Source: Omnitrophica bacterium GWA2_41_15 (lineage in GTDB: Bacteria; Omnitrophota; Gorgyraeia; Gygaellales; UBA12090). From it: a stretch of 64,000 bases of DNA. The stretch is from the NCBI GenBank assembly GCA_919902675.1, contig CAKKRH010000001.1:3-64002 (forward strand). The letters run 5' to 3'. The notes under the pieces were generated by a model, which saw nothing but the letters and a program-made list of their open reading frames with translations, did not search any database and was not told the origin of the DNA. Numbering within the stretch: position 1 is the first letter of the stretch; every line of letters begins with the position of its first letter. Shown here piece by piece: positions 5,949-25,575 of this stretch. The position numbers were made by a program, and so were the translations under genes.

Positions 5949-5975
5949 CTATAAGTAACGGTTTTTACCGTTGAT

Positions 5976-6749
5976 TTGGCCTTAAATTCTGCTATACTTA
6001 AATCTATGGTAGAAAAGACCCAAAGCTCGGTAGCCTCCCGGCTTAAATCCTGGCATGGGGAGGCCTGGCATACGCCCAAAGGAAGAATAATCCGGGATAT
6101 AGTCTATGCCCTGGACGCGGGTCTGGTTACTACGGTCTCTTTTGTGGCCGGGGCCTCGGCCTCTTTAGCGGTAAGAGAGAAGATAATCCTGGCTGGATTA
6201 ATCCAGATAGCTTCTGGCGTTTTGGCGATATTTTTCGGAGCGTATATTTCCACCAAGGCCCAGAAGCATTTTTTTGAAAGCCAGATTGAAAGAGAAAAGA
6301 AAGAAATAGAGGAAATGCCTCAGAAGGAAACCGCTGAAGTCAGGGAGATTTTCAGCGAAATGGGTTTTACTACAGAAGAGCAGGAAATCGCGGTTAAAAG
6401 GATTACTTCAGACAAGAAGCGCTGGCTTAAGTTTATGATTCAGGAAGAAATAGGTATTAGTCCGGAAAGCATTGATAATCCCCTGGAAATAGGTTTTGTT
6501 TCCAGCGTGTCTTTTTTTCTGGGAACGCTTCCGGCAATCGCGCCATTTTTTTTGGTAAATAATGTGTCTCTGGCCTTGTCCTTATCCGCGGTTTCGGTGC
6601 TTTTGTTTCTTTTTATCCTGGGAGCTGGGAAGACTAAATTCACTAAGGCGCATTGGTTTCTAAGCGGAATAGAAACTTTATTTCTCGGGGCCATATCCTG
6701 CGGCGCTGGGTTTTTATTGGGAAAGATTGCCGTCGCCTATTTCCATTAA
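5976..6749 (+). CDS. VIT1/CCC1 family iron (Fe2+/Mn2+) transporter
   Basis: DIVYALDAGLVTTVSFVAGAS N-terminal block, a central acidic helix region and C-terminal TM helices typical of VIT family. Confidence 0.7.
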   Translation: MALNSAILKSMVEKTQSSVASRLKSWHGEAWHTPKGRIIRDIVYALDAGLVTTVSFVAGASASLAVREKIILAGLIQIASGVLAIFFGAYISTKAQKHFFESQIEREKKEIEEMPQKETAEVREIFSEMGFTTEEQEIAVKRITSDKKRWLKFMIQEEIGISPESIDNPLEIGFVSSVSFFLGTLPAIAPFFLVNNVSLALSLSAVSVLLFLFILGAGKTKFTKAHWFLSGIETLFLGAISCGAGFLLGKIAVAYFH

Positions 6750-6795: not shown

Positions 6796-7647
6796 ATGGA
6801 TAGAAAAATAACCTTTAAAGGCAATTCTTTAACTCTGGTTGGAAGAGGCATTAAGGCCGGCAATGCCGCTCCTTATTTCAGGGTAGTTGCCCAGGACTTA
6901 AAAGAGATTGGCCTCTCGGATTTTAGGAGCAAGGTTAAGCTTATTACCAGCTTTCCTTCAATAGATACCCCGGTGTGCGACCTGCAGGTTAAAGAGTTTA
7001 ATAGGAGGGCTGTGGGGCTGTCTTCGGATATCGTGATTATGGGAATAAGTAAAGACTTGCCTTTTGCCCAGGCCAGATTCTGCCAGGCCAATGATATTAA
7101 GAATATCTTAACTTTCTCGGATTATAAGTTTTCCTCTTTTGGCATTAATTATGGACTGCTGATAAAAGAGCTTAATCTTTTAGCCAGGGCGATAATTATC
7201 GTTGATAAAAATGACGTTCTCCGCTATATCCAAATAGTTGAAGAATTAACCACTGCCCCGGATTATAACGATGCCTTAAATAATTTAGAGCTGGTATTTA
7301 AAAACCCTCAAGGTGAAATTCAGACAGAACTTCCCGCTAAATGTAAGGCCTGCGAGGCAGGCGTCCCGGCTTTGGTCAAAGAAAAAATCGAAAAACTGCT
7401 GGCTAAATATCGGGGATGGGAGCTGATTGAGGATAAAAGAATAGTCAAAGAGTTTAAATTCAAGGATTTTACGGAAGCCAAGTATTTCCTGGATTTAGTT
7501 TCGGTTATCGCCCAAGAGCAAGGGCATCATCCCAATCTAACCTTAATTTACAACAAGCTTAAAATCACTCTAACCACCCATAGCTCAGGCGGCTTGACCG
7601 AAAACGATTTTATAATGGCTAAGATTATCGATGAGCTCCAAGGATGA
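6796..7647 (+). CDS. tpx: thiol peroxidase (Tpx) fused to pterin-4a-carbinolamine dehydratase (PCD/DCoH) domain
   Basis: Residues 1-165 align by eye with E. coli Tpx (SFPSIDTPVC, DLPFAQARFC, TTAPDYNDAL). Residues ~190-283 carry the PCD signature (GWEL...FKFKDFTEAKYFLDLV...GHHPNLTLIYNKLKITLTTH). Confidence 0.85.
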   Translation: MDRKITFKGNSLTLVGRGIKAGNAAPYFRVVAQDLKEIGLSDFRSKVKLITSFPSIDTPVCDLQVKEFNRRAVGLSSDIVIMGISKDLPFAQARFCQANDIKNILTFSDYKFSSFGINYGLLIKELNLLARAIIIVDKNDVLRYIQIVEELTTAPDYNDALNNLELVFKNPQGEIQTELPAKCKACEAGVPALVKEKIEKLLAKYRGWELIEDKRIVKEFKFKDFTEAKYFLDLVSVIAQEQGHHPNLTLIYNKLKITLTTHSSGGLTENDFIMAKIIDELQG

Positions 7648-14342: not shown

Positions 14343-15185
14343 ATGGGTTTAAAAGTTGAAAACCTGAGCAAGTCTTTCTGGCGTAAAGATGTGGGGAATA
14401 TCCCCGTCCTTGAGGATGTTAGTTTTGAGCTTAAGGACGGGGAATTTGCCTGCGTGCTTGGGCCTTCAGGGTGCGGTAAATCCACCCTGCTCAATATTGC
14501 CGGGGGCCTGGTTAAGCCGGATAAGGGCAGTGTCTGTGTTGACGGTTCCCGCGTGAGCGAACCCTCGCCGGAGCGGGTGATTATTTTTCAGGAGCCCACG
14601 CTTTTTCCCTGGATGACGGTTCTTGAGAATGTGCTTTTTGCTTTAAAGACTAAACCGATCAAGAAGCCGGATAAACAGGATATTGCCATTTCTTTCTTAA
14701 GGAAGGTGCACCTGGGGAAGTTTATTAACGCCCATCCCCATGAGCTTTCCGCGGGAATGAAACAGCGGGTGGCTATTGCCCGGGCCCTGGCCATGGAGCC
14801 GAAAATACTGCTTATGGATGAGCCGCTCAGTCTGGTTGATGACCAGACCCGTTTTATGCTTCACTATGAAATCCAGCAGATTTTTAAAGAGACCAAAAAG
14901 ACTGTTTTGTTTGTTACCAGTTCGGTGGAAGAGGCAGTATGCCTGGCGGATAGATTATTTGTTTTTTCCGCCCGGCCGGGAAAGATTTTATTTGAACAAA
15001 AAATAGGCTTTTCTCATCCCAGGAGAGAAACCGATCCCCAGTTGGTATTCTTGCAGGATAACATCAGCACTATATTGGAGAGAGAATTTGAAAAGACAGC
15101 CAAAGAGGAGATGGACATTGAATACGTTCTTACGAAGAGCGGCGTTTTGGTTCCTTTTGATCGTAATCTGGGAAGCAATATTTAG
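14343..15185 (+). CDS. ABC transporter ATP-binding protein (NitT/TauT, sulfonate/nitrate/taurine type)
   Basis: Walker A GPSGCGKST, signature LSAGMKQR, Walker B LLMDEP. Confidence 0.85.
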   Translation: MGLKVENLSKSFWRKDVGNIPVLEDVSFELKDGEFACVLGPSGCGKSTLLNIAGGLVKPDKGSVCVDGSRVSEPSPERVIIFQEPTLFPWMTVLENVLFALKTKPIKKPDKQDIAISFLRKVHLGKFINAHPHELSAGMKQRVAIARALAMEPKILLMDEPLSLVDDQTRFMLHYEIQQIFKETKKTVLFVTSSVEEAVCLADRLFVFSARPGKILFEQKIGFSHPRRETDPQLVFLQDNISTILEREFEKTAKEEMDIEYVLTKSGVLVPFDRNLGSNI

Positions 15186-15873
15186 GTTTAACGTATTTCC
15201 GGCCCGTAATTTTCCTTCCTTGTGTATGGTATTGGGAAAATTCGCCGAAGGATTTATCTCCGGAGAATATTTATTATCCCTTAAGACCAGCCTGTTGAGA
15301 ATCGGTATCGGATACAGCCTGGCAATTATTTTAGGTATTTTCTTAGGGTTAGCCATGGGCCTGGTGAAGTTTATTGACGAGGGTGTAAGCGGGATACTCC
15401 TGGGCCTGCAGTCAATGGGACACGCGGCCTGGGTGCCTTTCGCGGTTTTATTCTTTGGGGAAAATGAACTGGCGGTTATTTTTATTGTCCAGATAAGCGC
15501 GATGATTGTAATTACCCTGAATACCGAAAGCGGGATAAAGTTTGTTTCACCCCAGCTCATAAACCAGGCGCGCATCAGCGGGATAAAGGGGGTAAGCCTG
15601 TTTCGGGAGGTGGTGTTGCCGGCGGCAGTGCCTTCAATAATTACCGGGATGCGCTTAGGCTGGGCTTTTTCCTGGCGGGGATTGGTTACGGCGGAGATTT
15701 TGGTTTCGGGCTTGGGTATCGGCCACATCCTTATGCGGGCCAAGGAGCAGAAAGATATGGCCTATGTTATGGCGACAATGCTTTTGATTGCCTCTATTTC
15801 TATTATTGTGGACAATCTGATTTTTAAGAACCTAGAGAACAGCGTGCGTCGGCGCTGGGGAATAGCAAAGTAA
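15088..15873 (+). CDS. ABC transporter permease (SsuC/TauC-like)
   Basis: Six-TM BPD-transporter-like ORF. The track start overlaps the ATPase by 98 nt. A TTG at about 15118 behind AGGAGA is a more likely start. Confidence 0.75.
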   Translation: MKRQPKRRWTLNTFLRRAAFWFLLIVIWEAIFRFNVFPARNFPSLCMVLGKFAEGFISGEYLLSLKTSLLRIGIGYSLAIILGIFLGLAMGLVKFIDEGVSGILLGLQSMGHAAWVPFAVLFFGENELAVIFIVQISAMIVITLNTESGIKFVSPQLINQARISGIKGVSLFREVVLPAAVPSIITGMRLGWAFSWRGLVTAEILVSGLGIGHILMRAKEQKDMAYVMATMLLIASISIIVDNLIFKNLENSVRRRWGIAK

Positions 15874-15875
15874 AC

Positions 15876-15903
15876 CCAAAATCAAAATGCGAAAATCAAA
15901 ATT
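15876..15903. repeat. heptanucleotide array (CAAAATN x4)
   Basis: CCAAAAT CAAAATG CGAAAAT CAAAATT spanning the permease/JAMM junction and the first JAMM codons. Confidence 0.55.
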
Positions 15904-16306
15904 ATGGGTAAAAAGGGAGATTTACGATGAGCTTCTCCGGCACTGTCTGAGAGAGCCGGCAAAGGAGTCCTGCGGCATACTGGCCGGCCGCTCCGGCAGG
16001 ATAGAGAGGATTTTTCCCTTAGCCAATATCTCTGATACTCCCAAACTTTGTTATATGATTGACCCTAAGGAACAACTTTCAGTTTTTAAGGAACTGCGCG
16101 AGGATAATTTGGAGTTAACAGCGATATATCACTCCCATGTGGATGTTCAGGCTTACCCGTCAAAAAAAGATGTGGAGCTGGCTTTTTATCCGGAGAGTTC
16201 TTATGTTATAATTTCCCTAAGCAAACAAAAACCGCCTGAGACGCGCTCCTTTAGGATCATCGAGGGCAAGATTGAGGAAGAAGAATTAGAAATAGTTAGT
16301 AATTGA
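15887..16306 (+). CDS. JAMM/MPN+ (Mov34) metalloprotease, Mec/QbsD/HcyD-like
   Basis: ESCGIL (catalytic Glu) and HSHVDVQAYPSKKD (HxHx7Sx2D JAMM motif). Confidence 0.8.
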   Translation: MRKSKLWVKREIYDELLRHCLREPAKESCGILAGRSGRIERIFPLANISDTPKLCYMIDPKEQLSVFKELREDNLELTAIYHSHVDVQAYPSKKDVELAFYPESSYVIISLSKQKPPETRSFRIIEGKIEEEELEIVSN

Positions 16307-16309
16307 TTT

Positions 16310-17326
16310 ATGTATAAATTAAAGAGACTACGCGTGAGTAAAGCAATGAGAGATTTGACGGCTCAAGTCAACTTGGGCATTCACAATCTGGTTATGCCTT
16401 ATTTTGTCCGCGAGGGCAAAAAGATAAGACAGCCCATAGAGGCGATGCCCGGGGTTTTTCGTTTTTCGCGGGATGAATTATTGAAAGAAGTTGAACAGTT
16501 AAGGCTTGCCGGTGTCCATTCGCTTATCCTCTTTGGCCTGCCCGGGGAAAAAGATGATGCCGGTCTAAAGGCCTATTCTGAAAACGGGGTTATTCAAAAA
16601 GCGGTCCGGGCCTTAAAGAAAAATTTTGGCGATGAACTGGCAATAATTACCGATGTCTGTTTGTGCGGCTATACTAAGCATGGGCATTGCGGCATCTTAA
16701 AAAGGCAAAAGGCAAAAGGCAAAAGGCAAAAAGAATTTTCTATTGATAATGATGAGACGCTAAAGGTTTTGGTTAAGATTGCCCTTTCTCACGCCCGGGC
16801 TGGGGCGGATATTGTGGCTCCCAGCAGTATGATGGACGGCCAGGTTCAGGCCATTCGCCAAGAGCTGGATAAAAATGGTTTTAGCGAAACCGCGATTATG
16901 GGCTATTCCGCTAAGTTTGCCTCTAACTTTTACGGGCCTTTCAGGGAGGCCGCCGGTTCCGGGATGAAATTCGGTGATCGAAAAAGCTATCAAATGGACT
17001 TTAGAAATTCGGATGAGGCTTTAAGGGAAATTGAGGCGGATATTCAGGAAGGCGCGGATATACTGATGGTCAAGCCGGCGCTGGCCTATCTGGATATAAT
17101 CGCTAAAGCCAAAGAAAGATTCGCCGTTCCTTTAGCCGCGTTTAATGTCAGCGGGGAGTATAGTATGGTAAAAACATACTGTAAGTCCACAGTCCACAGT
17201 CCACAGTCCACAGGAATAGAAAAAGAGCTGGCTTTGGAGATTTTGACCGCGATAAAAAGAGCCGGCGCAGACATAATTATTACTTATTACGCGAAAGAAG
17301 CGGCTGGATGGCTGAAGAAAACCTAA
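16310..17326 (+). CDS. hemB: porphobilinogen synthase (delta-aminolevulinate dehydratase)
   Basis: CLCGYTKHGHCG zinc site, ADIVAPSSMMDGQV, VKPA active-site Lys, NVSGEYSM, KRAGADIIITYYA. Confidence 0.9.
   Translation: MYKLKRLRVSKAMRDLTAQVNLGIHNLVMPYFVREGKKIRQPIEAMPGVFRFSRDELLKEVEQLRLAGVHSLILFGLPGEKDDAGLKAYSENGVIQKAVRALKKNFGDELAIITDVCLCGYTKHGHCGILKRQKAKGKRQKEFSIDNDETLKVLVKIALSHARAGADIVAPSSMMDGQVQAIRQELDKNGFSETAIMGYSAKFASNFYGPFREAAGSGMKFGDRKSYQMDFRNSDEALREIEADIQEGADILMVKPALAYLDIIAKAKERFAVPLAAFNVSGEYSMVKTYCKSTVHSPQSTGIEKELALEILTAIKRAGADIIITYYAKEAAGWLKKT
16704..16731 (+). repeat. (GGCAAAA)x4 heptanucleotide array inside hemB
   Basis: GGC recurs at 16704, 16711, 16718 and 16725. The array is translated as KRQKAKGKRQK directly after the HGHCGIL zinc-site motif. 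Confidence 0.85.
17184..17212 (+). repeat. (AGTCCAC)x4 heptanucleotide array inside hemB
   Basis: GTCCACA at 17185, 17192, 17199 and 17206. The array is translated as KSTVHSPQST between NVSGEYSMVK and EKELALEIL. Confidence 0.85.
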
Positions 17327-18546
17327 CAAACTACAAATTACAAACTACAAACTACCACCTTTTTCGCGAAGCAAAAAAGGTTATCCCCGGCGGAGTAAAT
17401 AGCCCGGTGCGCTCGTTTAAGGCGGTGGGAGGCGCTCCGGTTTTTATCAAAAAGGCCTCCGGCTCAAAATTTCTCGCTGAAGACGGTAAAACCTATATAG
17501 ATTACTGTATGTCCTGGGGGGCGTTATTATTAGGCCATGCTCACTCTGAGGTTGTATCCGGGGTAAAAAAGGCGGTTGAAAAAGGCACCAGCTACGGCGC
17601 GGCTACCAAGGCCGAGACCGAATTCGCCAAGATTATTACTCGAGCCATTCCTTCCTGCGAGCTGGCGCGTTTGGTCTCATCAGGTACTGAAGCGGCGATG
17701 TCGGCAATCCGGGTTGCCCGGGGTTATACCAGGAAAAATAAAATCATTAAGTTTAAGGAATGTTATCACGGCCACAGCGATTATTTCTTATCGGGAAAAA
17801 GCGCCGGCATCCCGGAAAATATAAGCCGGGATGTCTATAGTCTTGATTATAATAACTTAGAGCAAGCGGAAGAAGCCTTAGAAAAAGATAAGGATATTGC
17901 CTGCGTGATTGTTGAACCGATCGCGGCCAATACCGGTTTGATCCTGCCTTTAAAAAGTTTCTTAGAAGGCCTGCGCAAGCTGACCTTAAAGCATAAAGCC
18001 CTGCTTATTTTTGATGAGGTGATTACCGGCTTTCGTTTTTGTTTTGGAGGCGTCCAGAATATCTTTGGGATTATCCCGGATTTGACCTGTTTAGGCAAGA
18101 TTATTGGCGGGGGTTTTCCTTTGGCCTGCTTTGGGGGAAAAAAAGAAATTATGCGCCACCTTGCTCCACTGGGAAGCGTTTATCAGGCCGGCACATTATC
18201 CGGAAACCCGGTCGCGGTCCAGGCCGGGCTTAAAACTTTAGAAATTATCAAAAAGCCCGGTTTTTATAAAAGGCTCAATGAAAAAGCCGGGTCTTTTTAT
18301 AAAAAAATAGACGGAATAATTGAAAATAAGAAAACGAATATTGTCTTAAACCGTTTTGGGGCGATGTTTCATTTCAGTTTTAAAGATAAAAAACAGTTCA
18401 GCGGATTTTTTCATAATCTATTAGCCCAAGGGATTTATCTTTCGCCGGCAGGCGATGAGGTGTGTTTTGTCTCGGCGGCGCATACGGATAAAGATTTTGA
18501 AATAACTTTAAAAGCATTGAATCATTTAAAAGAGAGGTTGGTATGA
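17308..18546 (+). CDS. hemL: glutamate-1-semialdehyde 2,1-aminomutase
   Basis: LFREAKKVIPGGVNSPVRSF, FDEVITGFR, LGKIIGGGFP (PLP Lys). Confidence 0.9.
   Translation: MAEENLTNYKLQTTNYHLFREAKKVIPGGVNSPVRSFKAVGGAPVFIKKASGSKFLAEDGKTYIDYCMSWGALLLGHAHSEVVSGVKKAVEKGTSYGAATKAETEFAKIITRAIPSCELARLVSSGTEAAMSAIRVARGYTRKNKIIKFKECYHGHSDYFLSGKSAGIPENISRDVYSLDYNNLEQAEEALEKDKDIACVIVEPIAANTGLILPLKSFLEGLRKLTLKHKALLIFDEVITGFRFCFGGVQNIFGIIPDLTCLGKIIGGGFPLACFGGKKEIMRHLAPLGSVYQAGTLSGNPVAVQAGLKTLEIIKKPGFYKRLNEKAGSFYKKIDGIIENKKTNIVLNRFGAMFHFSFKDKKQFSGFFHNLLAQGIYLSPAGDEVCFVSAAHTDKDFEITLKALNHLKERLV
17327..17354 (+). repeat. (CAAAYTA)x4 heptanucleotide array at hemB stop / hemL N-terminus
   Basis: CAAACTA CAAATTA CAAACTA CAAACTA, translated as the NLTNYKLQTTNYH extension of HemL. 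Confidence 0.8.
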
Positions 18547-18803
18547 TTACTATCGTCCTTAACGGAAAGAAAGAAGAATTGGAAAAAGAATTGACGGTTT
18601 TGGAATTATTAAAGAAGAAAAATATCCGCCCGGAAGTGGTGACAGTGGAATTAAACGAGAAAATCCTTGGCCGTCAGGAATTTGAGCAGACAATTATCCG
18701 GAATAATGATAAAATAGAGTTTGTTTATTTTATGGGAGGCGGCGGTTCGACTCAGCTGCCTTCGGCAGTTTTGCTCACCGTTGTAGAGTCGAAGGAGAGG
18801 TGA
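18543..18803 (+). CDS. ThiS-like sulfur-carrier (ubiquitin-fold) protein with 18-aa extension after the GG motif
   Basis: 68-aa ThiS-like core ending FVYFMGGGG, followed by STQLPSAVLLTVVESKER. ATGA overlap with hemL. Confidence 0.65.
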   Translation: MITIVLNGKKEELEKELTVLELLKKKNIRPEVVTVELNEKILGRQEFEQTIIRNNDKIEFVYFMGGGGSTQLPSAVLLTVVESKER

Positions 18804-18804
18804 T

Positions 18805-19737
18805 ATGCCATTTTCAGATAAAGTTGCCAATAATGTCTTAGAGCTTATTTGTAATACCCCGATTATCCGGCTTAACCGCTTGCCGGATAAGGATTCGGCG
18901 GTTATCTATGCCAAGTTAGAACAGTTTAATCCCGGAGGCTCGGTTAAAGACCGGATATGTTTGTCTATGATCCAGGAAGCTGAAAAAGAAGGCCTGCTTA
19001 AAAGCGGCTCAACCATAATTGAGCCGACCTCCGGTAACACCGGCATAGGCCTGGCAATGGTGGGAGCGGTAAAGGGTTGCCGGGTAATTCTGACTATGCC
19101 TGAGACTATGTCTATAGAGAGGATATATATCCTGAAATCTTTGGGCGCGGAAGTAGTGCTTACCCCGGGGATAGAGGGAATGAGCGGGGCAATCAAAAAG
19201 GCGGAGGAGCTTCTGAAGAATACCCCGAATAGCTTTATGCCGCAGCAATTTAAGAACAAGGCTAATCCCAAAATACACCGCGAAACCACCGCCAGGGAAA
19301 TCTTGAATGTTCTGGGAAATAAAATAGACGCCTTTGTATGCGGCGTAGGCACCGGCGGGACTATTACCGGTGTGGGGGAGGCCTTAAAAGAAAAGAATCC
19401 TAGGATAAGAGTTATCGCGGTTGAACCGGAGGCCTCGGCGGTCCTTTCCGGAGAAAAGCCGGGCGCGCATAAAATCCAGGGGATAGGCGCGGGATTTGTT
19501 CCTGAGATATTAAACCGCGAAGTTATTGACCGGATTATCAAGGTTTCAGATAACGATGCTTTTAAGACGGCCAGAAGATTAGCCAAAGAAGAAGGATTAT
19601 TCGTGGGGTTATCCAGCGGGGCCGCGGCCTGGGCCGCCTTAAAAATAGCCCAGGACTTAGGAAAAAATAAAACCGTAGTTACCATATTTCCGGATACCGG
19701 GGAAAGATACGGGAGTATGCAGCAATACTTTGAGTGA
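18805..19737 (+). CDS. cysK: cysteine synthase (O-acetylserine/O-phosphoserine sulfhydrylase, CysK/CysM family)
   Basis: NPGGSVKDR PLP-Lys motif, TSGNTG, GVGTGGTITG. Confidence 0.9.
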   Translation: MPFSDKVANNVLELICNTPIIRLNRLPDKDSAVIYAKLEQFNPGGSVKDRICLSMIQEAEKEGLLKSGSTIIEPTSGNTGIGLAMVGAVKGCRVILTMPETMSIERIYILKSLGAEVVLTPGIEGMSGAIKKAEELLKNTPNSFMPQQFKNKANPKIHRETTAREILNVLGNKIDAFVCGVGTGGTITGVGEALKEKNPRIRVIAVEPEASAVLSGEKPGAHKIQGIGAGFVPEILNREVIDRIIKVSDNDAFKTARRLAKEEGLFVGLSSGAAAWAALKIAQDLGKNKTVVTIFPDTGERYGSMQQYFE

Positions 19738-19744
19738 GAATAAA

Positions 19745-22102
19745 ATGTTTAAACTGCCTAACGAAGTAAAAGAGAGCATAAAAAATTACCGTAGTTCTTT
19801 GGAAGACCTGCTTAGCGGAAAAATCAGCCCGGCGCGCTTTACCGGCGTGCGGGTGCCCTGGGGGCTTTACAGCCATCGCGGGGGCAAGGTCTTTATGAGC
19901 CGCGTCCGGATTCCCGCAGGGCAGGTCAGCGCCGAACAGCTTAAGGCCATCGCGCGCTGCGCCCGCGCCTATGGGAATGGGATCACTCATATCACCACCA
20001 GGCAGGATATCCAAATCCATGAAGTAAAGATTGAAGATACGATTAAGGTTATTGAGTATCTGAAGGATTTTGAGCTTTCTCCCCGGGGCGGAGGAAGCAA
20101 TACCGTGAGGAATGTTACCGCTTGTGTTTTCTCCGGGATATGTCCGGATGAGGTCTTTGATACCGCCGGATACGCCATTTCTCTCACTGAATACCTTCTG
20201 GCCCAGGACAGTTCCTTTAACCTGCCGCGTAAATTCAAGGTTGCTTTCTCCGGATGCGCTAAGGACTGCGCGGCGATAGTGGTTAATGATGTCGGACTCT
20301 TAGCTAAAATAAAAGACGGGCAAAAAGGTTTTCAGGTTTTTGTCGGCGGAGGAATGGGCGCGGAGTCGCTTACCGGGCATCTCTTGGAGGAGTTTATCTC
20401 CGAGGCTGAGTTAGGTTATTGCGTCAGCGCCGTCAAAAATGTGTATTCCAAGCAAGGCGACCGCCGGAATAAGCACCATAACCGCTTAAGGTTTTTGATT
20501 AAAGATAACGGTATGGATGTTTTTAAGAAATGGTATCAGGAGGAGTTAAGAGTATTGAAAGAGGCCGAATACATCAACTTGAGGAATATTGAACCGGCGT
20601 CTCCTCAAGTCTCTGGCGGGGATATCCCTAAGGTGGAGGATAAAGACTTTAATGAATTTATAAAATACAATCTTATTGAACAGAAACAAAGCGGTTTAGT
20701 GATTGTGGAATTAAGGATTCCCCGGGGTGACCTTCCCGCGGATAGGCTGGAGAAAATCGCCGCGTTGGAAAATTATTTTCCCGGCCTGGAATACCGGGCT
20801 TCCCAGAATCAAAATCTTTGCCTTTGTAATATCCGAAAGTCCGATACCCATGAGTTGTTTTTAAAGCTGAAAGATATTTTAGAGGATTTTATCTATCCGG
20901 ACAGCCTCCAGGATGTGGTCTGCTGTAAGGGCGCGCTTACCTGTAATCTCGGCCTATGTAATTCACCGGCTTTGACCGAGGAGCTGGAGAAGCTGATAAG
21001 AGATAATTTTATCGCAAAGGCAGTGCTGAAAAAGATAAATATCAAGATAAACGGCTGTCCTAATGCCTGCGGCCAGCATCCCCTGGGGCTTATTTCCCTG
21101 CACGGAATGGTGCGCCGGGTAGGCGGGCATCCGGTTCCCTTTTATAAACTGCTTTTAGGAGGCAGGAAAGGCATTACCCTGACCCGCCTGGCTAAAGACA
21201 CCAAACTGATGATACCGGCTAAGAACTTGTTATTGTTCTTTAAGGACTTCCTGGATAAAATAAACAGCCAGATTGATGAAAATACGGATATCTATAGTTA
21301 TTTTGATGAACAGGCGGAAAGCGCGGCCAGAGAGATTACCCAGCGCTACGGCTATGTTCCGGCTTATTCGGAGAATAAGGATTATTACATTGATTGGGGC
21401 AGAAGCGAAGAGTTTTCCCTGGAGGGTATGGGGCCGGGTGAGTGCGGCTCAGGGGTTATGGATATGATTGATACGGATTTAAGCGATGCCAAAATTCATC
21501 TGGAAGCCGCGCGCGAAGATAATTATTCTGTCCAGGAAATAAAGAAGGCTTTATTCTTCAGCGCCCGGGCCCTTTTGGTGGTGCGCGGAGCTGACCCCCG
21601 GGATGAATTAAGCGCCTTAAATGATTTTGTGGAAAAGTTTGTCCGGGCAGGATTGGCTGATGGCAAATTTTCCCGGCTTAAAGAAGTATATGTCTCTTTA
21701 TCTGAAGGCCTAAGCCCTAAAGAGAAGGAAGAGAAATTTTTATACGCCCAGGAATATCTGGAACACATAAAAGAAGTATATAAAAATATGGACCCCCAGT
21801 TTAATTTTCCTAAATATTCCGCCCCTGTCTCTCAACAGGAGGTAAAAGTAGAAGTTGAGCCATCGGAAGTTAAATCTCCGGTTTTGGATTTAAAGGGGGT
21901 ACGTTGCCCGATGAATTATGTCCAGGCGAAATTATACTTAGAGAATATCAAGATCGGCGAGACGGTTGAGATATGTTTAGACGAGGGTGAGCCGATCCAG
22001 AATGTCCCGGTCAGCCTTAAAAACGACGGCCAGGAGATCTTAGGGATTACAAGAATAGAGAATTATTATAAGGTGCTGGTAAAAAAATTAGTTGATAGTT
22101 GA
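19745..22102 (+). CDS. assimilatory-type sulfite reductase (NIR_SIR siroheme/4Fe-4S) fused to C-terminal TusA/SirA-like domain
   Basis: TACVFSGIC...SGCAKDC and CCKGALTCNLGLC...NGCPNAC cluster motifs. C-terminal LDLKGVRCPMNYVQAKL...GETVEICLDEGEP is TusA-like. ATG 19745 is preferred over track GTG 19730. Confidence 0.75.
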   Translation: MFKLPNEVKESIKNYRSSLEDLLSGKISPARFTGVRVPWGLYSHRGGKVFMSRVRIPAGQVSAEQLKAIARCARAYGNGITHITTRQDIQIHEVKIEDTIKVIEYLKDFELSPRGGGSNTVRNVTACVFSGICPDEVFDTAGYAISLTEYLLAQDSSFNLPRKFKVAFSGCAKDCAAIVVNDVGLLAKIKDGQKGFQVFVGGGMGAESLTGHLLEEFISEAELGYCVSAVKNVYSKQGDRRNKHHNRLRFLIKDNGMDVFKKWYQEELRVLKEAEYINLRNIEPASPQVSGGDIPKVEDKDFNEFIKYNLIEQKQSGLVIVELRIPRGDLPADRLEKIAALENYFPGLEYRASQNQNLCLCNIRKSDTHELFLKLKDILEDFIYPDSLQDVVCCKGALTCNLGLCNSPALTEELEKLIRDNFIAKAVLKKINIKINGCPNACGQHPLGLISLHGMVRRVGGHPVPFYKLLLGGRKGITLTRLAKDTKLMIPAKNLLLFFKDFLDKINSQIDENTDIYSYFDEQAESAAREITQRYGYVPAYSENKDYYIDWGRSEEFSLEGMGPGECGSGVMDMIDTDLSDAKIHLEAAREDNYSVQEIKKALFFSARALLVVRGADPRDELSALNDFVEKFVRAGLADGKFSRLKEVYVSLSEGLSPKEKEEKFLYAQEYLEHIKEVYKNMDPQFNFPKYSAPVSQQEVKVEVEPSEVKSPVLDLKGVRCPMNYVQAKLYLENIKIGETVEICLDEGEPIQNVPVSLKNDGQEILGITRIENYYKVLVKKLVDS

Positions 22103-22117
22103 TAGTTTATGGTTTAT
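22090..22117. repeat. heptanucleotide array (GTTGATA GTTGATA GTTTATG GTTTATA)
   Basis: Read directly across the sulfite reductase stop codon. Confidence 0.75.
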
Positions 22118-22144
22118 AGCAAACCTAAACTAAAGGAGCAGGCT

Positions 22145-23419
22145 ATGAGCTATGTGTTAGGTTTAAAATGCCGGGAATGTGGCCGGGAATACCCTAAGGA
22201 TGTTTTGTTTGTCTGCGAGTATTGCTTTGGCTCTTTAGAAGTAAATTATGATTACAAAGCTATCAAGAAAAACCTGACCAAAGAAACTCTCTTGGGCCGT
22301 CCCAAAAATATGTGGCGCTATAAGGAGCTCCTGCCCATTGATAAAGACCCGGCAGTCGGGCTAGATTCAGGATATACTCCTTTGATTAAGGCGAATAATT
22401 TGGCCAGGGTTTTGGGAGTGAGAGAGCTTTATCTCAAAGACGATTCCGTAAATCATCCAACCTTGTCTTTTAAAGACAGGGTGGTCTCCGTGGCTATCTC
22501 CAAGGCCAGGGAATTTGGTTTTGACACCGTGGCCTGCGCCTCAACCGGCAATCTGGCTAATTCCGTCTCGGCCCAGGCCGCATCCTGCGGGCTAAAGGCT
22601 TATATTTTTATTCCGGCTGACCTGGAAACAGGTAAGGTGGTAGCCTCGCAGATTTATAATCCCAACCTTATCGGTATTGAAGGAAACTATGATGAGGTTA
22701 ACCGTCTTTGTTCGGAGATTGCCTCCAGATACCGCTGGGCCTTTGTGAACATCAATATCCGTCCCTTTTACGCCGAGGGCTCCAAGTCAATGGGGTATGA
22801 GATTGCCGAGCAATTGGATTGGAAATTGCCCAAACATATTGTGGTGCCGTCAGCAGGCGGCTCGTTGATTACTAAGCTTTGGAAGAGCTTTAAGGAATTG
22901 AAAGAGCTGGGATTTCTGGAGAAGGCGGATACTAAGGTTTACTGCGCCCAGGGCCAGGGCTGCGCCCCGATAGTTACCGCGATCAAGGAAAAGTCCGAGG
23001 TAATTCGGCCGGTTAAGCCCAAGACTATTGCCAAGAGCCTGGCGATCGGAAATCCCGCCGACGGATATTATGCCGTAGACACGGTGAGAAAATCCGGCGG
23101 TTTTGCTGAGGAGGCCTCTGACGAAGAAATTGTAGAGGCAATAAAATTATTAGCCAAAACCGAAGGAATTTTCACCGAGACCGCCGGAGGGGTTACTTTG
23201 GCGGCAGCCAAGAAGCTAATCGAGCAGGGGATTATTCCTAAAGACGAGTCAATTGTCATCTGCATTACCGGAAACGGCCTTAAGACCCTGGAAGTGGTTA
23301 CTAAGTCTTTGCCCAGGCTGGTGAAAATCAAACCAAACTTAGCCAGTTTTGAAGAGCATATTAAAAACGGCGCGCACCAGAAGATTTCCGAGAACAAGGT
23401 TATTGAGTATTATATTTAA
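22145..23419 (+). CDS. threonine synthase-like PLP enzyme with N-terminal zinc ribbon (MetM-like candidate)
   Basis: CRECG...CEYC zinc ribbon, HPTLSFKDR PLP-Lys motif, ASTGNLANS. ATG 22145 behind AAGGAG is preferred over track start 22109, which lies in the heptad array. Confidence 0.8.
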   Translation: MSYVLGLKCRECGREYPKDVLFVCEYCFGSLEVNYDYKAIKKNLTKETLLGRPKNMWRYKELLPIDKDPAVGLDSGYTPLIKANNLARVLGVRELYLKDDSVNHPTLSFKDRVVSVAISKAREFGFDTVACASTGNLANSVSAQAASCGLKAYIFIPADLETGKVVASQIYNPNLIGIEGNYDEVNRLCSEIASRYRWAFVNINIRPFYAEGSKSMGYEIAEQLDWKLPKHIVVPSAGGSLITKLWKSFKELKELGFLEKADTKVYCAQGQGCAPIVTAIKEKSEVIRPVKPKTIAKSLAIGNPADGYYAVDTVRKSGGFAEEASDEEIVEAIKLLAKTEGIFTETAGGVTLAAAKKLIEQGIIPKDESIVICITGNGLKTLEVVTKSLPRLVKIKPNLASFEEHIKNGAHQKISENKVIEYYI

Positions 23420-23430
23420 GGAGGAAAGAA

Positions 23431-23718
23431 ATGATGGCAAAAGTTAAGGTGAGGATTCCGGCGCCCCTGCAGAAGATTACCCAGAATAAACAGGAGGTAA
23501 TTGCTGAGGCAAAGAATATCAAAGAGCTGATTCTGGATTTAGAGAAACAGTTTCCGGGGATGAAAGACCGCCTGCTGGATGAAAGCGGGAAGATTCGGCG
23601 TTTTATTAATTTCTATGTTAATGATGAGGATATTCGTTTTCTGAAACAGGACGAAACCCAGTTAGTTGAGGGAAGTGAAGTTTCCATAATTCCCGCTATT
23701 GCCGGCGGCCTAAAATAG
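23431..23718 (+). CDS. MoaD/CysO-like sulfur-carrier protein with GG followed by 2 extra residues (LK)
   Basis: 95-aa beta-grasp-like ORF ending SIIPAIAGG-LK. GGAGG RBS. Confidence 0.65.
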   Translation: MMAKVKVRIPAPLQKITQNKQEVIAEAKNIKELILDLEKQFPGMKDRLLDESGKIRRFINFYVNDEDIRFLKQDETQLVEGSEVSIIPAIAGGLK

Positions 23719-23740
23719 TTTATAACTAAGAGGAAAAAAG

Positions 23741-24565
23741 ATGGCGTTAACTAATGAGCAGATTGACCGGTATTCCCGGCAGATAATTTTACCAAATGTC
23801 GGGGGTAAGGGCCAGGATAAGATTCTTAAAAGCAAAGTTTTGGTTATCGGAACCGGCGGCCTGGGGGCGCCCTGCAGTTTTTATCTGGCCGCCGCCGGGG
23901 TGGGAAAAATCGGTTTAGTGGATTCGGATAAGGTTGAGTTGAATAACCTGCAAAGACAGATTGTGCATACTACTTTGGATGTAGGCATACCCAAGGTTGA
24001 ATCCGGGAAGAAACGGTTGAACGCCTTAAATCCGGATACCGAGGTAGTTACCTATAATTTAAGGTTAGATTCCGGTAATATTCTGGATGTGATTAAAGAT
24101 TACGATATCGTGGTGGACGGCTCGGATAATTTCCCCACCCGTTATTTAGTCAATGATGCCTGCGTGATTGCTAAAAAACCTTTAGTGCATGCCGGAATTT
24201 TTCGTTACGACGGCCAGATTATGACTATCCTGCCGGGGAAAGGCCCTTGTTACCGCTGCCTGTTCCCGGAGCCGCCTCCGGCCGGGGCTGTGCCCAGTTG
24301 TCAGGAGGGAGGGATACTCGGGGCAGTGGCCGGGGTTTTGGGAGTGCTCCAGGCCAATGAGGCCCTGAAATTTATCCTGCAAAGCGGAGAGCTTTTATCC
24401 GGAAGGCTGTTGATATTTAACGCCTCAGATGCTTCTTTTAGGACAGTTAAAGTGCCTAAGGATAAAGATTGTCCGGTTTGCTCAGAACATCCCACAGTTA
24501 CCAAATTAATTGATTATCAGGAATTCTGCAGTTTGAAGCAGAATAAGGATTGCAGTATAAAATAG
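23741..24565 (+). CDS. ThiF/MoeB/HesA family E1-like adenylyltransferase (no rhodanese domain)
   Basis: RYSRQIILPNVG, GTGGLGAP nucleotide loop, DNFPTRY, CYRC and CPVC zinc pairs. Confidence 0.85.
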   Translation: MALTNEQIDRYSRQIILPNVGGKGQDKILKSKVLVIGTGGLGAPCSFYLAAAGVGKIGLVDSDKVELNNLQRQIVHTTLDVGIPKVESGKKRLNALNPDTEVVTYNLRLDSGNILDVIKDYDIVVDGSDNFPTRYLVNDACVIAKKPLVHAGIFRYDGQIMTILPGKGPCYRCLFPEPPPAGAVPSCQEGGILGAVAGVLGVLQANEALKFILQSGELLSGRLLIFNASDASFRTVKVPKDKDCPVCSEHPTVTKLIDYQEFCSLKQNKDCSIK

Positions 24566-24571
24566 GAGATA

Positions 24572-24814
24572 ATGATGGCAAAAAGAATAATAAAGCTTAC
24601 TTTCCCCAAGGATCTGATTAAAGAACCTTTAACCTTCACTATGGCTAAGAAATATAATATTATGCCCAATATCCGCCGGGCCAAGGTTACCGAGAGCGTG
24701 GGGGAGCTGGTTCTGGAGTTAGACGGCCAGGAGCAGGATTTGGATAAGGGCGTTGAGTTTTTGAAGAAGTCAGGGGTAATTGTGGAATCTATCGTCGGAG
24801 ATGTAATCGGGTAG
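24572..24814 (+). CDS. NIL domain protein
   Basis: 80 aa. The IIKLTFPKDLIKEPLTFTMAKKYNIMPNIRRAKV pattern resembles the NIL domain of MetN C-termini and methanogen homocysteine-synthesis partners. Confidence 0.6.
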   Translation: MMAKRIIKLTFPKDLIKEPLTFTMAKKYNIMPNIRRAKVTESVGELVLELDGQEQDLDKGVEFLKKSGVIVESIVGDVIG

Positions 24815-24837
24815 GGGCGAACGGACCTTCGCCCCTA
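24812..24837 (+). terminator. GC-rich hairpin at operon end
   Basis: TAGGGGCGAA cggacc TTCGCCCCTA, a 10-bp perfect stem that includes the stop codon. No T-run follows. Confidence 0.4.
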
Positions 24838-24852
24838 GCGTGAATTACTAAA

Positions 24853-25575
24853 ATGAATCTATACGGCAGAAATTCGATTTTTGAGCGTTTAAAGATAAAT
24901 CCTAAAAGCATAAAAAGGATACTTCTTGAAGAGGGTAAAGATTTAAGCAGTATCAGGCGCCTCTCTAAGTCTAATGGTATCCCTTTTAATTGTTTTCCTC
25001 AAGCCAGATTTGATAAGTTCTCCCGGAATATCCGTTCCCAGGGCGTGATTGCCGAAGTGGAGGAATTTCAATATGCCAACCTGGAGGATATACTTGATCC
25101 GGAAAAAGTAAAGCCCCCAATCATCTTATTTCTGGATAACCTAAACGACCCGCAAAATTTAGGGGCGATACTGCGAACCTGCGGCTGTTTTGGAGGATTC
25201 GCGGTAGTGCTTCCTAAACATGATTCGGTGGAGGTAACTGAGGCGGCTTTAAGGGTAGCCTCCGGCACGGAAAATTATGTTCCGGTGGCCAAGGTTAACG
25301 GTTTATTGCCGGCAGTTATTTTGGCCAAGGAGCGCGGTTTTTGGATTGGCGGGGCGATGACCACCGGAGGCCAGGACATTGCCTCAGTCAGATTAAACTT
25401 TCCCTTAGGCCTGATAATCGGCTCCGAGGCCAAAGGCATCCGGCAGTCTTTGACCAAGGAGTTGGATTTCGGGCTTTCCATCCCTATGCACACCGGAGGC
25501 TTGTCCTTTAACGCCGCCACAGCCGCCGCGATATTCGCTTACGAAGCCATACGCCAGAAAAGAAAACAAAGTTAA
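24853..25575 (+). CDS. rlmB: SpoU/TrmH family RNA 2'-O-methyltransferase (RlmB-like)
   Basis: LDNLNDPQNLGAILRTC, IIGSEAKGI, LSFNAATAAAI motifs. Confidence 0.8.
   Translation: MNLYGRNSIFERLKINPKSIKRILLEEGKDLSSIRRLSKSNGIPFNCFPQARFDKFSRNIRSQGVIAEVEEFQYANLEDILDPEKVKPPIILFLDNLNDPQNLGAILRTCGCFGGFAVVLPKHDSVEVTEAALRVASGTENYVPVAKVNGLLPAVILAKERGFWIGGAMTTGGQDIASVRLNFPLGLIIGSEAKGIRQSLTKELDFGLSIPMHTGGLSFNAATAAAIFAYEAIRQKRKQS

Follow-up and report, generated by a model that had tools for sequence, protein, structure and literature searches.

A translated tail behind the glycines of a ThiS-like sulfur carrier in an Omnitrophota operon: a probable mobile-cassette remnant at an ancestral ThiS-CysK junction

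Sulfur carriers of the ThiS/MoaD type need a free C-terminal glycine for adenylation. The stretch of DNA analysed here, 64,000 nucleotides of a contig of Omnitrophica bacterium GWA2_41_15 (hereafter the window), carries an operon with two such carriers: a ThiS-like one directly ahead of a cysteine synthase gene (cysK) and a MoaD-like, CysO-type one further downstream. In both, the Gly-Gly (GG) at the end of the fold is followed by additional translated residues. The subject of this study is the tail of the ThiS-like carrier, the 61-nt insertion that encodes it, and the JAMM metalloprotease of the same operon as the candidate enzyme for exposing the glycines. The features of the locus are collected in Table 1.

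Table 1. Features of the carrier operon, in positions of the window
Feature	Positions	Strand	Basis
ThiS-like open reading frame (ORF)	18543..18803	+	86 aa, C-terminus ...EFVYFMGGGGSTQLPSAVLLTVVESKER
ThiS-type sulfur-carrier core, M1-G67, ending ...EFVYFMGGG	18543..18743	+	PF02597 and TIGR01683 stop at residue 67
C-terminal extension, 19 codons (GSTQLPSAVLLTVVESKER) and TGA stop	18744..18803	+	predicted disordered; missing from nearest fused relatives
61-nt insertion at the ancestral ThiS/CysK junction, putative remnant of a GIY-YIG cassette leader and first codons	18744..18804	+	clean indel; profile match
8-bp inverted repeat TTCGACTC (18746-53) / GAGTCGAA (18786-93), outer stem of the leader	18746..18793	+	pairing also in minimum-free-energy folds of full copies
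Variable inner hairpin CUGCC (18756-60)-UUC-GGCAG (18764-68), followed by UUUUG	18756..18768	+	arms covary among copies
Conserved leader block TTGCTCACCGTT (consensus TCGCTCACCATT), here without its 3' pairing partner CCTGAGCGA	18771..18782	+	reads LLTV
GAGTCGAAGGA, putative remainder of the initial GIY-YIG ORF codons (M-SESKD), now ESKE of the ThiS tail	18786..18796	+	overlaps cysK Shine-Dalgarno AAGGAGAGG
JAMM/MPN+ metalloprotease, candidate carrier-processing and adduct-hydrolysing enzyme	15887..16306	+	Prok-JAB 1.4e-23; motif
hemB and hemL	16310..18546	+	ORFs; same order in most related loci
CysK-type pyridoxal-phosphate cysteine synthase	18805..19737	+	TIGR01139 452.6 bits, above cut-off
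Siroheme-type sulfite reductase with C-terminal TusA domain	19730..22102	+	NIR_SIR 1.2e-48, TusA 3e-15; conserved in operon
Threonine-synthase paralog, candidate MetM-like homocysteine synthase	22109..23419	+	PALP and ThrC models
CysO/MoaD-type carrier core ending IPAIAGG	23431..23709	+	PF02597 1.3e-15
Two-residue extension L-K and stop of the second carrier	23710..23718	+	ORF translation
ThiF/MoeB-type E1 adenylyltransferase without rhodanese domain	23741..24565	+	PF00899 7.6e-83
NIL-domain protein, last conserved operon gene	24572..24814	+	PF09383 1.5e-16

Fold ends and tails of the two carriers

An NCBI entry with the name 'sulfur carrier protein ThiS' matches the ThiS-like product at 100% identity. 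Two family models match it over their full length and end at residue 67, the third glycine (Pfam ThiS PF02597, 1.5e-11; NCBIfam TIGR01683, 6.8e-20, 71.2 bits against a cut-off of 37.45), and in a search of solved structures the alignment with the B. subtilis ThiS chain 1tyg_B runs to the very end of that chain, again at this glycine. Alignment to the carrier families, which the original prediction had proposed as a check, places the fold ends at G67 in the ThiS-like carrier and at residue 93 in the MoaD-like one. In an AlphaFold2 model built with 37 homologs, the last strand spans residues 57-62, and pLDDT is about 95 for residues 1-60 and then declines to 67, 46, and 42, so that the tail is predicted to be disordered. 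Matches of the carrier to designer pentatricopeptide repeats in a phmmer search of the PDB were disregarded as low-complexity matches to GKKEELEKELTVLELLKKKNIRPEVVTV.

Gly-Gly is present at the fold end, yet the translated C-terminus is not Gly-Gly: 19 residues (G68-R86) lie beyond G67. The tail had been predicted as 18 residues beyond FMGGGG; the tail itself is real, and the smaller figure holds only when counting starts past the fourth glycine rather than from the family GGG end. Its TGA stop (18801-18803) is one base ahead of the cysK ATG (18805), and the ribosome-binding site of cysK (AAGGAGAGG, 18792-18800) lies inside the tail codons, as had been pointed out earlier.

The second carrier, ORF 23431..23718, ends IPAIAGG-LK as previously read, two residues beyond G93, so that its translated C-terminus is not GG either. 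Among solved structures, M. tuberculosis CysO (3dwg_C, 5.6e-17) is the closest to it and terminates exactly at GG. With extra residues beyond the GG of both carriers, processing would be needed ahead of adenylation.

What related loci encode beyond the glycines

Related loci were collected by a pattern scan with one genome per species. The resulting 80 loci (numbered with L below) come from Omnitrophota and from metagenome-assembled genomes (MAGs) labelled Saganbacteria, Margulisiibacteriota, WOR-1, Ratteibacteria, Zixiibacteriota, Caldisericota, Dictyoglomaceae, Poribacteria, Sumerlaeota, Elusimicrobia, and Endomicrobia. ThiS directly precedes CysK in all 80, and the gene order in most is [JAMM]-hemB-hemL-ThiS-CysK-sulfite reductase/TusA-ThrC paralog-CysO-like carrier-ThiF-NIL. 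The MGGG of ThiS is invariant in 81 loci.

What follows the GGG varies widely. The frame runs on into CysK in 59 of the 80 loci, typically as GGG-(M/S/L)PFSD...; ten loci have a tail of 10-27 residues, nine a tail of 1-5 residues, and two an immediate stop. A stop right behind GG is thus rare in the survey of ortholog tails that had been suggested with the original prediction. The description of the tail as unusually long does not hold, the family range being 0-27 residues and more than 300 in fusions. YAF, GYAF, and RYAF, found among the short tails, result from reading the cysK start in another frame (GYAF is GGN TAT GCN TTT, overlapping ATG CCN TTT...).

An ATG stands behind GGG at 15 of the 59 fusion junctions. 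The other 44 have no start codon, and CysK in most lineages can therefore only arise as a fusion. At least 120 distinct database clusters (P0113-P0232) from independent pipelines contain ThiS+PALP proteins of 375-379 aa under no other name than 'cysteine synthase A', which argues that the fusions are not assembly errors. One example is L003:3173-4306; others include L016, L019, L035, and L044-L046.

The second carrier follows a similar pattern. Its IPAIAGG is invariant save for an I-to-V change of the first residue in two loci, and its tails range from 0 to 56 residues. It is fused in frame to ThiF in nine loci (L007, L008, L009, L012, L015, L024, L033, L067, and L073) and to the NIL protein in three (L071, L078, and L080), with the junction directly behind IPAIAGG.

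A JAMM homolog is encoded in 48 of the 80 loci. Where the sequence reaches 6 kb or more upstream of ThiS, 27/27 fused and 6/8 unfused loci have it, and in 20 loci it lies within 213 nt upstream of ThiS. The original prediction that the carriers depend on a protease, with the operon JAMM as candidate, is backed by the 59 ThiS-CysK fusions, the 12 fusions of the second carrier, the invariant GG, and the presence of JAMM in all 27 fused loci. On these sequence comparisons, JAMM-dependent exposure of GG is strongly supported, and one JAMM apparently serves both carriers.

The ThiS-like protein might alternatively be an ordinary thiamine ThiS with an incidental cysK neighbour, JAMM then serving only the CysO-like carrier. 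The score above the cut-off of TIGR01683, an equivalog model named 'sulfur carrier protein ThiS', would agree with this. Such a role is very unlikely, given that the gene adjoins cysK in every locus and is fused to it in 59, that JAMM is directly upstream in 20, and that a tail or fusion would equally block thiamine-type use.

The 61-nt insertion in the window

In the window and two sister species, compared with the nearest fused relatives (L003 and L034; 75% ThiS identity, no tail), 61 nt are inserted precisely where the GGG codons meet the ATG of MPFSD. The original prediction named an assembly read-through among the cases that would overturn it. The same 61-nt tail-coding stretch occurs in the species-level MAGs L001 and L002, and independent assemblies contribute five further protein clusters that have it. 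A sequencing or assembly artefact, including a frameshift error in a true ThiS-CysK fusion, would fit the fused state of most relatives and an insert length that is not a multiple of three. It is nevertheless extremely improbable, because the same architecture (61-nt spacer, TGA, one base, ATG) recurs in three species-level MAGs from different studies and in further metagenome clusters, and homologs of the insert with intact GIY-YIG genes are found in other loci.

Ways around the stop codon were also considered and rejected, as nothing was found in favour of any of them. A +1 frameshift at AGG-UGA-U that would restore the fusion has a spacing and slip codon unlike those of prfB; a gene-60-like hop between GGU codons has no stop behind the take-off codon; and read-through of TGA would lengthen the tail by no more than YAIFR, which is seen in cluster P0004.

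The insert occurs once in the 64-kb window, as does its 8-bp inverted repeat, for which 0 occurrences are expected by chance. It differs from L001:3005-3065 and L002:10202-10262 at 1-2 of 61 nt, whereas identity with these loci at third codon positions is about 85% in the flanking ThiS core and cysK, from which about 9 differences would be predicted. This conservation points to some constraint at the nucleotide level or to recent spread.

Such constraint raises the possibility that the 61 nt now act as a cis-acting RNA whose translation into a tail is incidental, a reading compatible with JAMM trimming. The RNA might mask the Shine-Dalgarno sequence in the UUCGACUC/GAGUCGAA stem and so couple cysK to ThiS, or serve as a weak terminator or mRNA stabiliser. 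Besides the few substitutions, it would explain why the 3' arm of the 8-bp stem overlaps AAGGAG, why the arms of the inner hairpin covary among copies, and why full-length copies of the leader fold better than shuffled sequences (z -2.2 to -2.8). The window copy, by contrast, lacks the 3' half of the second hairpin and folds no better than shuffles (z = -0.84 for 18738-18810 and -1.93 for 18725-18825). A base change in L001 breaks the small hairpin and is synonymous in the ThiS frame; the hairpin is not called in a terminator scan, and terminator-like sites are not above chance in the region; no Rfam family matches; and most relatives have no spacer at all. A cis-acting role as the explanation of the insert is therefore considered rather unlikely.

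The small hairpin followed by a U-run had been described earlier as CUGCC-UUCG-GGCAG; the hairpin is present, with a loop of 3 nt (UUC), one G having been counted twice. As an intrinsic terminator it was rejected: its stem has 5 bp, the run is UUUUG, it is absent from the scan list, and positions 15000-25500 contain 12 terminator-like sites against 14.7 expected. Other RNA identities fared no better. Rfam searches of the window and eight related loci, at gathering and permissive thresholds, gave only chance-level matches. GGTTCGACTC resembles a tRNA T-arm, but its flanks cannot form a T-stem, and the window has no tRNA-family match in Rfam (ARAGORN was not run). A CGCUCA/UGAGCG pseudoknot is unnecessary, since the minimum-free-energy folds of full copies are nested hairpins because GAGUCGAA occurs twice.

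Probable origin of the insertion in a GIY-YIG cassette

Nucleotide blocks of the insert also stand behind the ThiS GGG in at least seven other lineages. The leader they form consists of GGTTCGACTC, a variable hairpin, TCGCTCACCATT, GAGTCGAACCATCCTGAGCGA, and GAGTCGAAGGA. The hairpin arms covary among copies as CUGCC/GGCAG, CCGCC/GGCGG, ACGACCC/GGGUCGU, and GUCCUUC/GAAGGAC. Depending on the lineage, TCGCTCACC is translated as LLTVV or SLTI in one frame and as FVRSPF in another; with the blocks read in different frames, their conservation is at the nucleotide level and not at the peptide level.

A leader profile was built from six copies outside the clade of the window, using an E-INS-i alignment and nhmmer, and was searched against 1.06 Mb comprising the window and the loci. 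A MAFFT alignment made for a covariance model misaligned the 5' block and was not used. The profile matches the window at 18744-18793 (E = 0.0046), with no second match in the window; beyond training sequences and their duplicates, the only other matches in the 1.06 Mb are in L001, L002, and L081. A genome-wide repeat was accordingly rejected, the insert being single copy in the window and the profile matches in the 1.06 Mb falling only at two carrier junctions.

At the ThiS/CysK junction, copies of the cassette are found in successive states of decay. The nuclease ORF is intact in L086, in frame with ThiS (Pfam GIY-YIG 9e-20), and in L091/L092, which have a 76% identical nuclease with its own ATG and JAMM upstream. 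L090 carries a frameshifted pseudogene; L082, L087, and L089 retain a stub of the first 7-13 codons; and the window clade, L081, and L005 have the leader only. The nuclease ORF of L091 begins ATG AGC GAG TCG AAG GAT, and its start is identical to GAGTCGAAGGA. This block thus corresponds to the first codons of the GIY-YIG ORF, and the ...ESKER of the window tail to their remainder. The nuclease itself was not found in the window by tblastn with the L086 protein; the window therefore holds a scar and is not a member of the cassette family.

The ThiS/CysK junction occurs both with and without the cassette, a presence/absence polymorphism, and the cassette is not confined to it. In L004 (15473-15565, equal to L085:2181-2267 on the minus strand), the GG of the CysO-like carrier is directly followed by a cassette leader, whose translation extends the protein by a tail of 34 residues (SSTRLRSLTIVELNHPERVRNVVTNESKEFQIWL); ThiS and CysK are still fused in that genome. 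A homologous leader with a GIY-YIG gene starts right at the 3' end of a tRNA-Gln gene in L094:67-490, and L093 has a related GIY-YIG gene in an unrelated context, with upstream blocks similar by eye and no profile match. The cassette family may prefer sites behind structured or conserved 3' ends, such as a tRNA or the GGNGG of a carrier.

In L086:1581-2135, the intact GIY-YIG ORF lacks a start codon (ATG, GTG, or TTG) of its own and shares the frame of ThiS, giving a 184-aa ThiS-leader-nuclease ORF; the nuclease stub of L087:3255-3602 is likewise in frame. Judging from these reading frames, nucleases of this type might be translated as carrier fusions and freed by JAMM.

These relationships bear on whether the tail could be a dedicated propeptide that keeps the carrier inactive or acts as a recognition handle for JAMM. 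The tail is kept with few changes in the closest relatives (P0001-P0005, L001, and L002), and several long tails of other lineages also start with G-S-T, as a propeptide might. Yet ortholog tails range from 0-27 residues up to whole enzymes without a common sequence; the G-S-T start reflects the common nucleotide block GGTTCGACTC; the downstream blocks are in different frames in different lineages; the tail is predicted to be disordered; and the nearest relatives, at 75% identity, are tailless. A propeptide role is highly improbable. By the evidence of these alignments, the tail is the read-through of a 61-nt mobile-cassette remnant and not a dedicated propeptide.

The protease and the other operon genes

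The earlier report of a JAMM gene with an intact HxHx7Sx2D motif at 15887..16306 agrees with the Prok-JAB match and with the motif read from the translation, KESCG...YHSHVDVQAYPSKKD, that is, E...HSHx7SxxD. The closest solved relatives of the product are 2kks_A and PfJAMM1 (5ld9).

The cysteine synthase passes the cysK model (452.6 against 350.95) and fails the cysM model (304.5 against 394.2). The carrier beside it is ThiS-like, and the CysO-like carrier adjoins the ThrC paralog: the ThrC paralog is in every case followed by the CysO-like carrier, and the order ThrC paralog-CysO-like carrier-ThiF is conserved across loci. The NCBIfam label of the paralog is threonine synthase, which according to GapMind is a common misannotation of MetM. 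The sulfite reductase-TusA protein is the presumed sulfide source and relay. HemB and HemL presumably supply the tetrapyrrole for its siroheme, and their conserved position would suit co-expression.

Single loci depart from this organization. In L087, JAMM and a low-molecular-weight phosphatase-like domain (LMWPc) form one fused protein (221-1120), and a tautomerase gene lies between ThiF and NIL (7311-7505). L017 has a tandem repeat of about 100 nt (GGGCTTCACAAAATGTCCCCTCACCTTAATCCTCTCCCC...GGGGAGAGGAGATGA...) and a run of N between hemL and ThiS (5960-6300). Small selfish-looking inserts lie between hemB and hemL in L062:8230-8590 and L029:8360-8715; one is a frameshifted GIY-YIG gene with inverted repeats of about 30 bp (CATTGCGAG...GAAGCAATCTC / GAGATTGCTTC...CTCGCAATG), and the other is an ORF of about 115 aa.

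Proposed function and history of the locus

Homology and synteny suggest that the operon makes cysteine and homocysteine via protein thiocarboxylates. The ThiS-type carrier would pair with CysK to yield cysteine, and the CysO-type carrier with the MetM-like ThrC paralog to yield homocysteine, as in the MetM/MetO pathway. Both carriers would share one E1 (ThiF/MoeB), the sulfite reductase with TusA, and one JAMM. From the known chemistry of such systems, JAMM would be needed in each cycle for hydrolysis of the carrier-GG-Cys or carrier-GG-Hcy adduct, and would also strip whatever else follows GG. If JAMM removes anything beyond GG, there would be no selection for a stop codon at that position. 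Fusions with the following protein, tails from overlaps, and long tails in the family agree with this expectation.

The ancestor was probably a ThiS-CysK fusion with GGG directly before MPFSD. A GIY-YIG cassette would have inserted exactly at the fusion junction and then decayed, leaving 61 nt that comprise most of the structured 5' leader and the first codons of its ORF. The tail of 19 residues, its TGA stop, and the Shine-Dalgarno sequence of cysK would now all come from these 61 nt, and the fusion would have become two translationally coupled cistrons with cysK translated separately. The mature carrier is predicted to end ...FMGGG. Overall, the tail is probably a translated cassette remnant that split an ancestral ThiS-CysK fusion, tolerated since JAMM should trim everything beyond GG, and the tail peptide itself is probably functionless.

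Several points weigh against this interpretation. No JAMM lies nearby in L006 and L009 (Elusimicrobia/Endomicrobia), where the upstream sequence exceeds 6 kb, even though L009 has its second carrier fused to ThiF. No JAMM gene was found in any of L006-L009 in an upstream flank of 1.7-10 kb; the ThiS tail is a single residue (N) in L007-L009 and 11 residues in L006. These loci may have their protease gene at another place or rely on another enzyme. The JAMM ORF of the window scores 77.7 against the NCBIfam desampylase cut-off of 130, that is, below it. The order of events, fusion first and split later, is suggested by parsimony over 80 loci in an unrooted comparison. Finally, the 61-nt insert is not drifting freely and may have gained a role in ribosome binding, translational coupling, or RNA structure.

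A broader scenario can be offered only tentatively and is somewhat unlikely. The GIY-YIG cassette would repeatedly colonise the GG junctions of carriers (ThiS/CysK in at least eight lineages, CysO/ThiF in one), with JAMM making them a safe harbour, since inserted codons would be translated and then trimmed away, and with nuclease fusions freed by JAMM as well; a cleaved ThiS-CysK precursor would be the default in many candidate phyla. If true, a selfish element would be exploiting a prokaryotic system resembling ubiquitin fusions and deubiquitinases, and the ThiS-CysK precursor would be analogous to eukaryotic ubiquitin-ribosomal-protein fusions.

Novelty and implications

Carrier extensions combined with JAMM are already known, as is a carrier-enzyme fusion with obligatory cleavage in the case of MoaD-MoaE. 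In the literature searched, no description was found of ThiS-CysK as the form that prevails in this operon in many candidate phyla, of a second carrier fused to its own E1 or to NIL, or of a GIY-YIG cassette placed repeatedly at the GG junction, or of its scar. The window is a split derivative with such a scar, neither a fusion nor a carrier of the cassette.

For annotation, carrier genes of this operon family need not stop at GG, and 'cysteine synthase A' entries of 375-379 aa can be regarded as carrier-enzyme precursors. For evolution, a processing protease would free the C-terminus of a ubiquitin-like carrier to take fusions, overlaps, and mobile-element insertions, the same logic by which eukaryotic ubiquitin is encoded as fusions. 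The operon family also offers a test system in which one JAMM faces natural substrates of different kinds (GG-19mer, GG-LK, GG-CysK, and GG-ThiF). With such substrates, the specificity of carrier-processing JAMM enzymes from bacteria of uncultivated phyla, Omnitrophota among them, could be defined.

Comparison with known systems

QbsE/QbsD, CxnE/CxnF, HcyS/HcyD, and MetO/Mec share with the window a ThiS/MoaD-fold carrier with residues beyond GG, a clustered JAMM of the E...HxHx7Sx2D type, and an E1-type adenylase. HcyS, the carrier of the HcyS/HcyD system for Wolinella methionine described by Krishnamoorthy and Begley in 2011, reportedly has one residue beyond GG. The HcyS/HcyD work is cited in PMC5764234. 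In the thioquinolobactin system, QbsD cuts CF off QbsE, and in the chuangxinmycin system the decapeptide of CxnE is proposed to be removed by CxnF (PMC5925218); Mec matures MetO for homocysteine formation in Streptomyces, in the MetM/MetO pathway (10.1101/2024.10.14.618325). The window has the same layout as MetM/MetO, a ThrC paralog beside a CysO-like carrier, and likewise encodes JAMM and E1. The published extensions of QbsE and CxnE are short (CF and ten residues), whereas the ThiS tail of the window has 19 residues, is apparently derived from a mobile cassette, and replaces the whole-enzyme fusion of relatives. A further difference from QbsE, CxnE, HcyS, and MetO is that one JAMM apparently serves two carriers.

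In the CysO/CysM/Mec+ system of M. tuberculosis, the carrier thiocarboxylate feeds a pyridoxal-phosphate cysteine synthase, and the JAMM enzyme hydrolyses the carrier-Cys adduct. The window shares carrier, synthase, JAMM, and E1. Its second carrier is related to CysO, but CysO ends exactly at GG. The carrier beside the synthase is ThiS-like, not CysO-like, and the synthase scores as CysK over CysM; the E1 lacks a rhodanese domain; in its place, a TusA domain is joined to the sulfite reductase.

Operons combining ThiS/MoaD, JAB, and E1 with cysteine synthase or sulfur-assimilation genes appear in a catalogue of 2006 (PMC1779556). In the passages of that catalogue reached by a term search, ThiS-ThiG, MoaD-MoaE, and sulfite-reductase-ThiS fusions are mentioned, and a ThiS-CysK fusion was not found. 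Parallels also come from carriers fused upstream of a partner enzyme and cut behind GG. MoaX, the MoaD-MoaE fusion of M. tuberculosis, must be cleaved behind Gly82 (PMC4326299), and DRJAMM cleaves the MoaD-MoaE fusion DR2607 of D. radiodurans (PMC8832034). The ThiS-CysK, CysO-ThiF, and CysO-NIL fusions of relatives look alike and may, by analogy, be handled in the same way. The partners differ, being cysteine synthase, E1, and NIL, and the window holds the split derivative, not the fusion.

The insertion itself is best compared with free-standing GIY-YIG cassettes resembling homing endonucleases, which go through a cycle of invasion, decay, and loss. The ORF of the present family is only about 90 aa, with a nuclease domain and no recognisable DNA-binding domain; the cassette has a conserved structured leader without Rfam match, and the window retains just the 61-nt remnant. 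What the two have in common, in a likeness drawn from sequence, is a presence/absence polymorphism at a precise site flanked by conserved coding sequences, copies that are intact, frameshifted, truncated, or without ORF, and occurrence of related copies in other contexts, one of them directly behind a tRNA gene.

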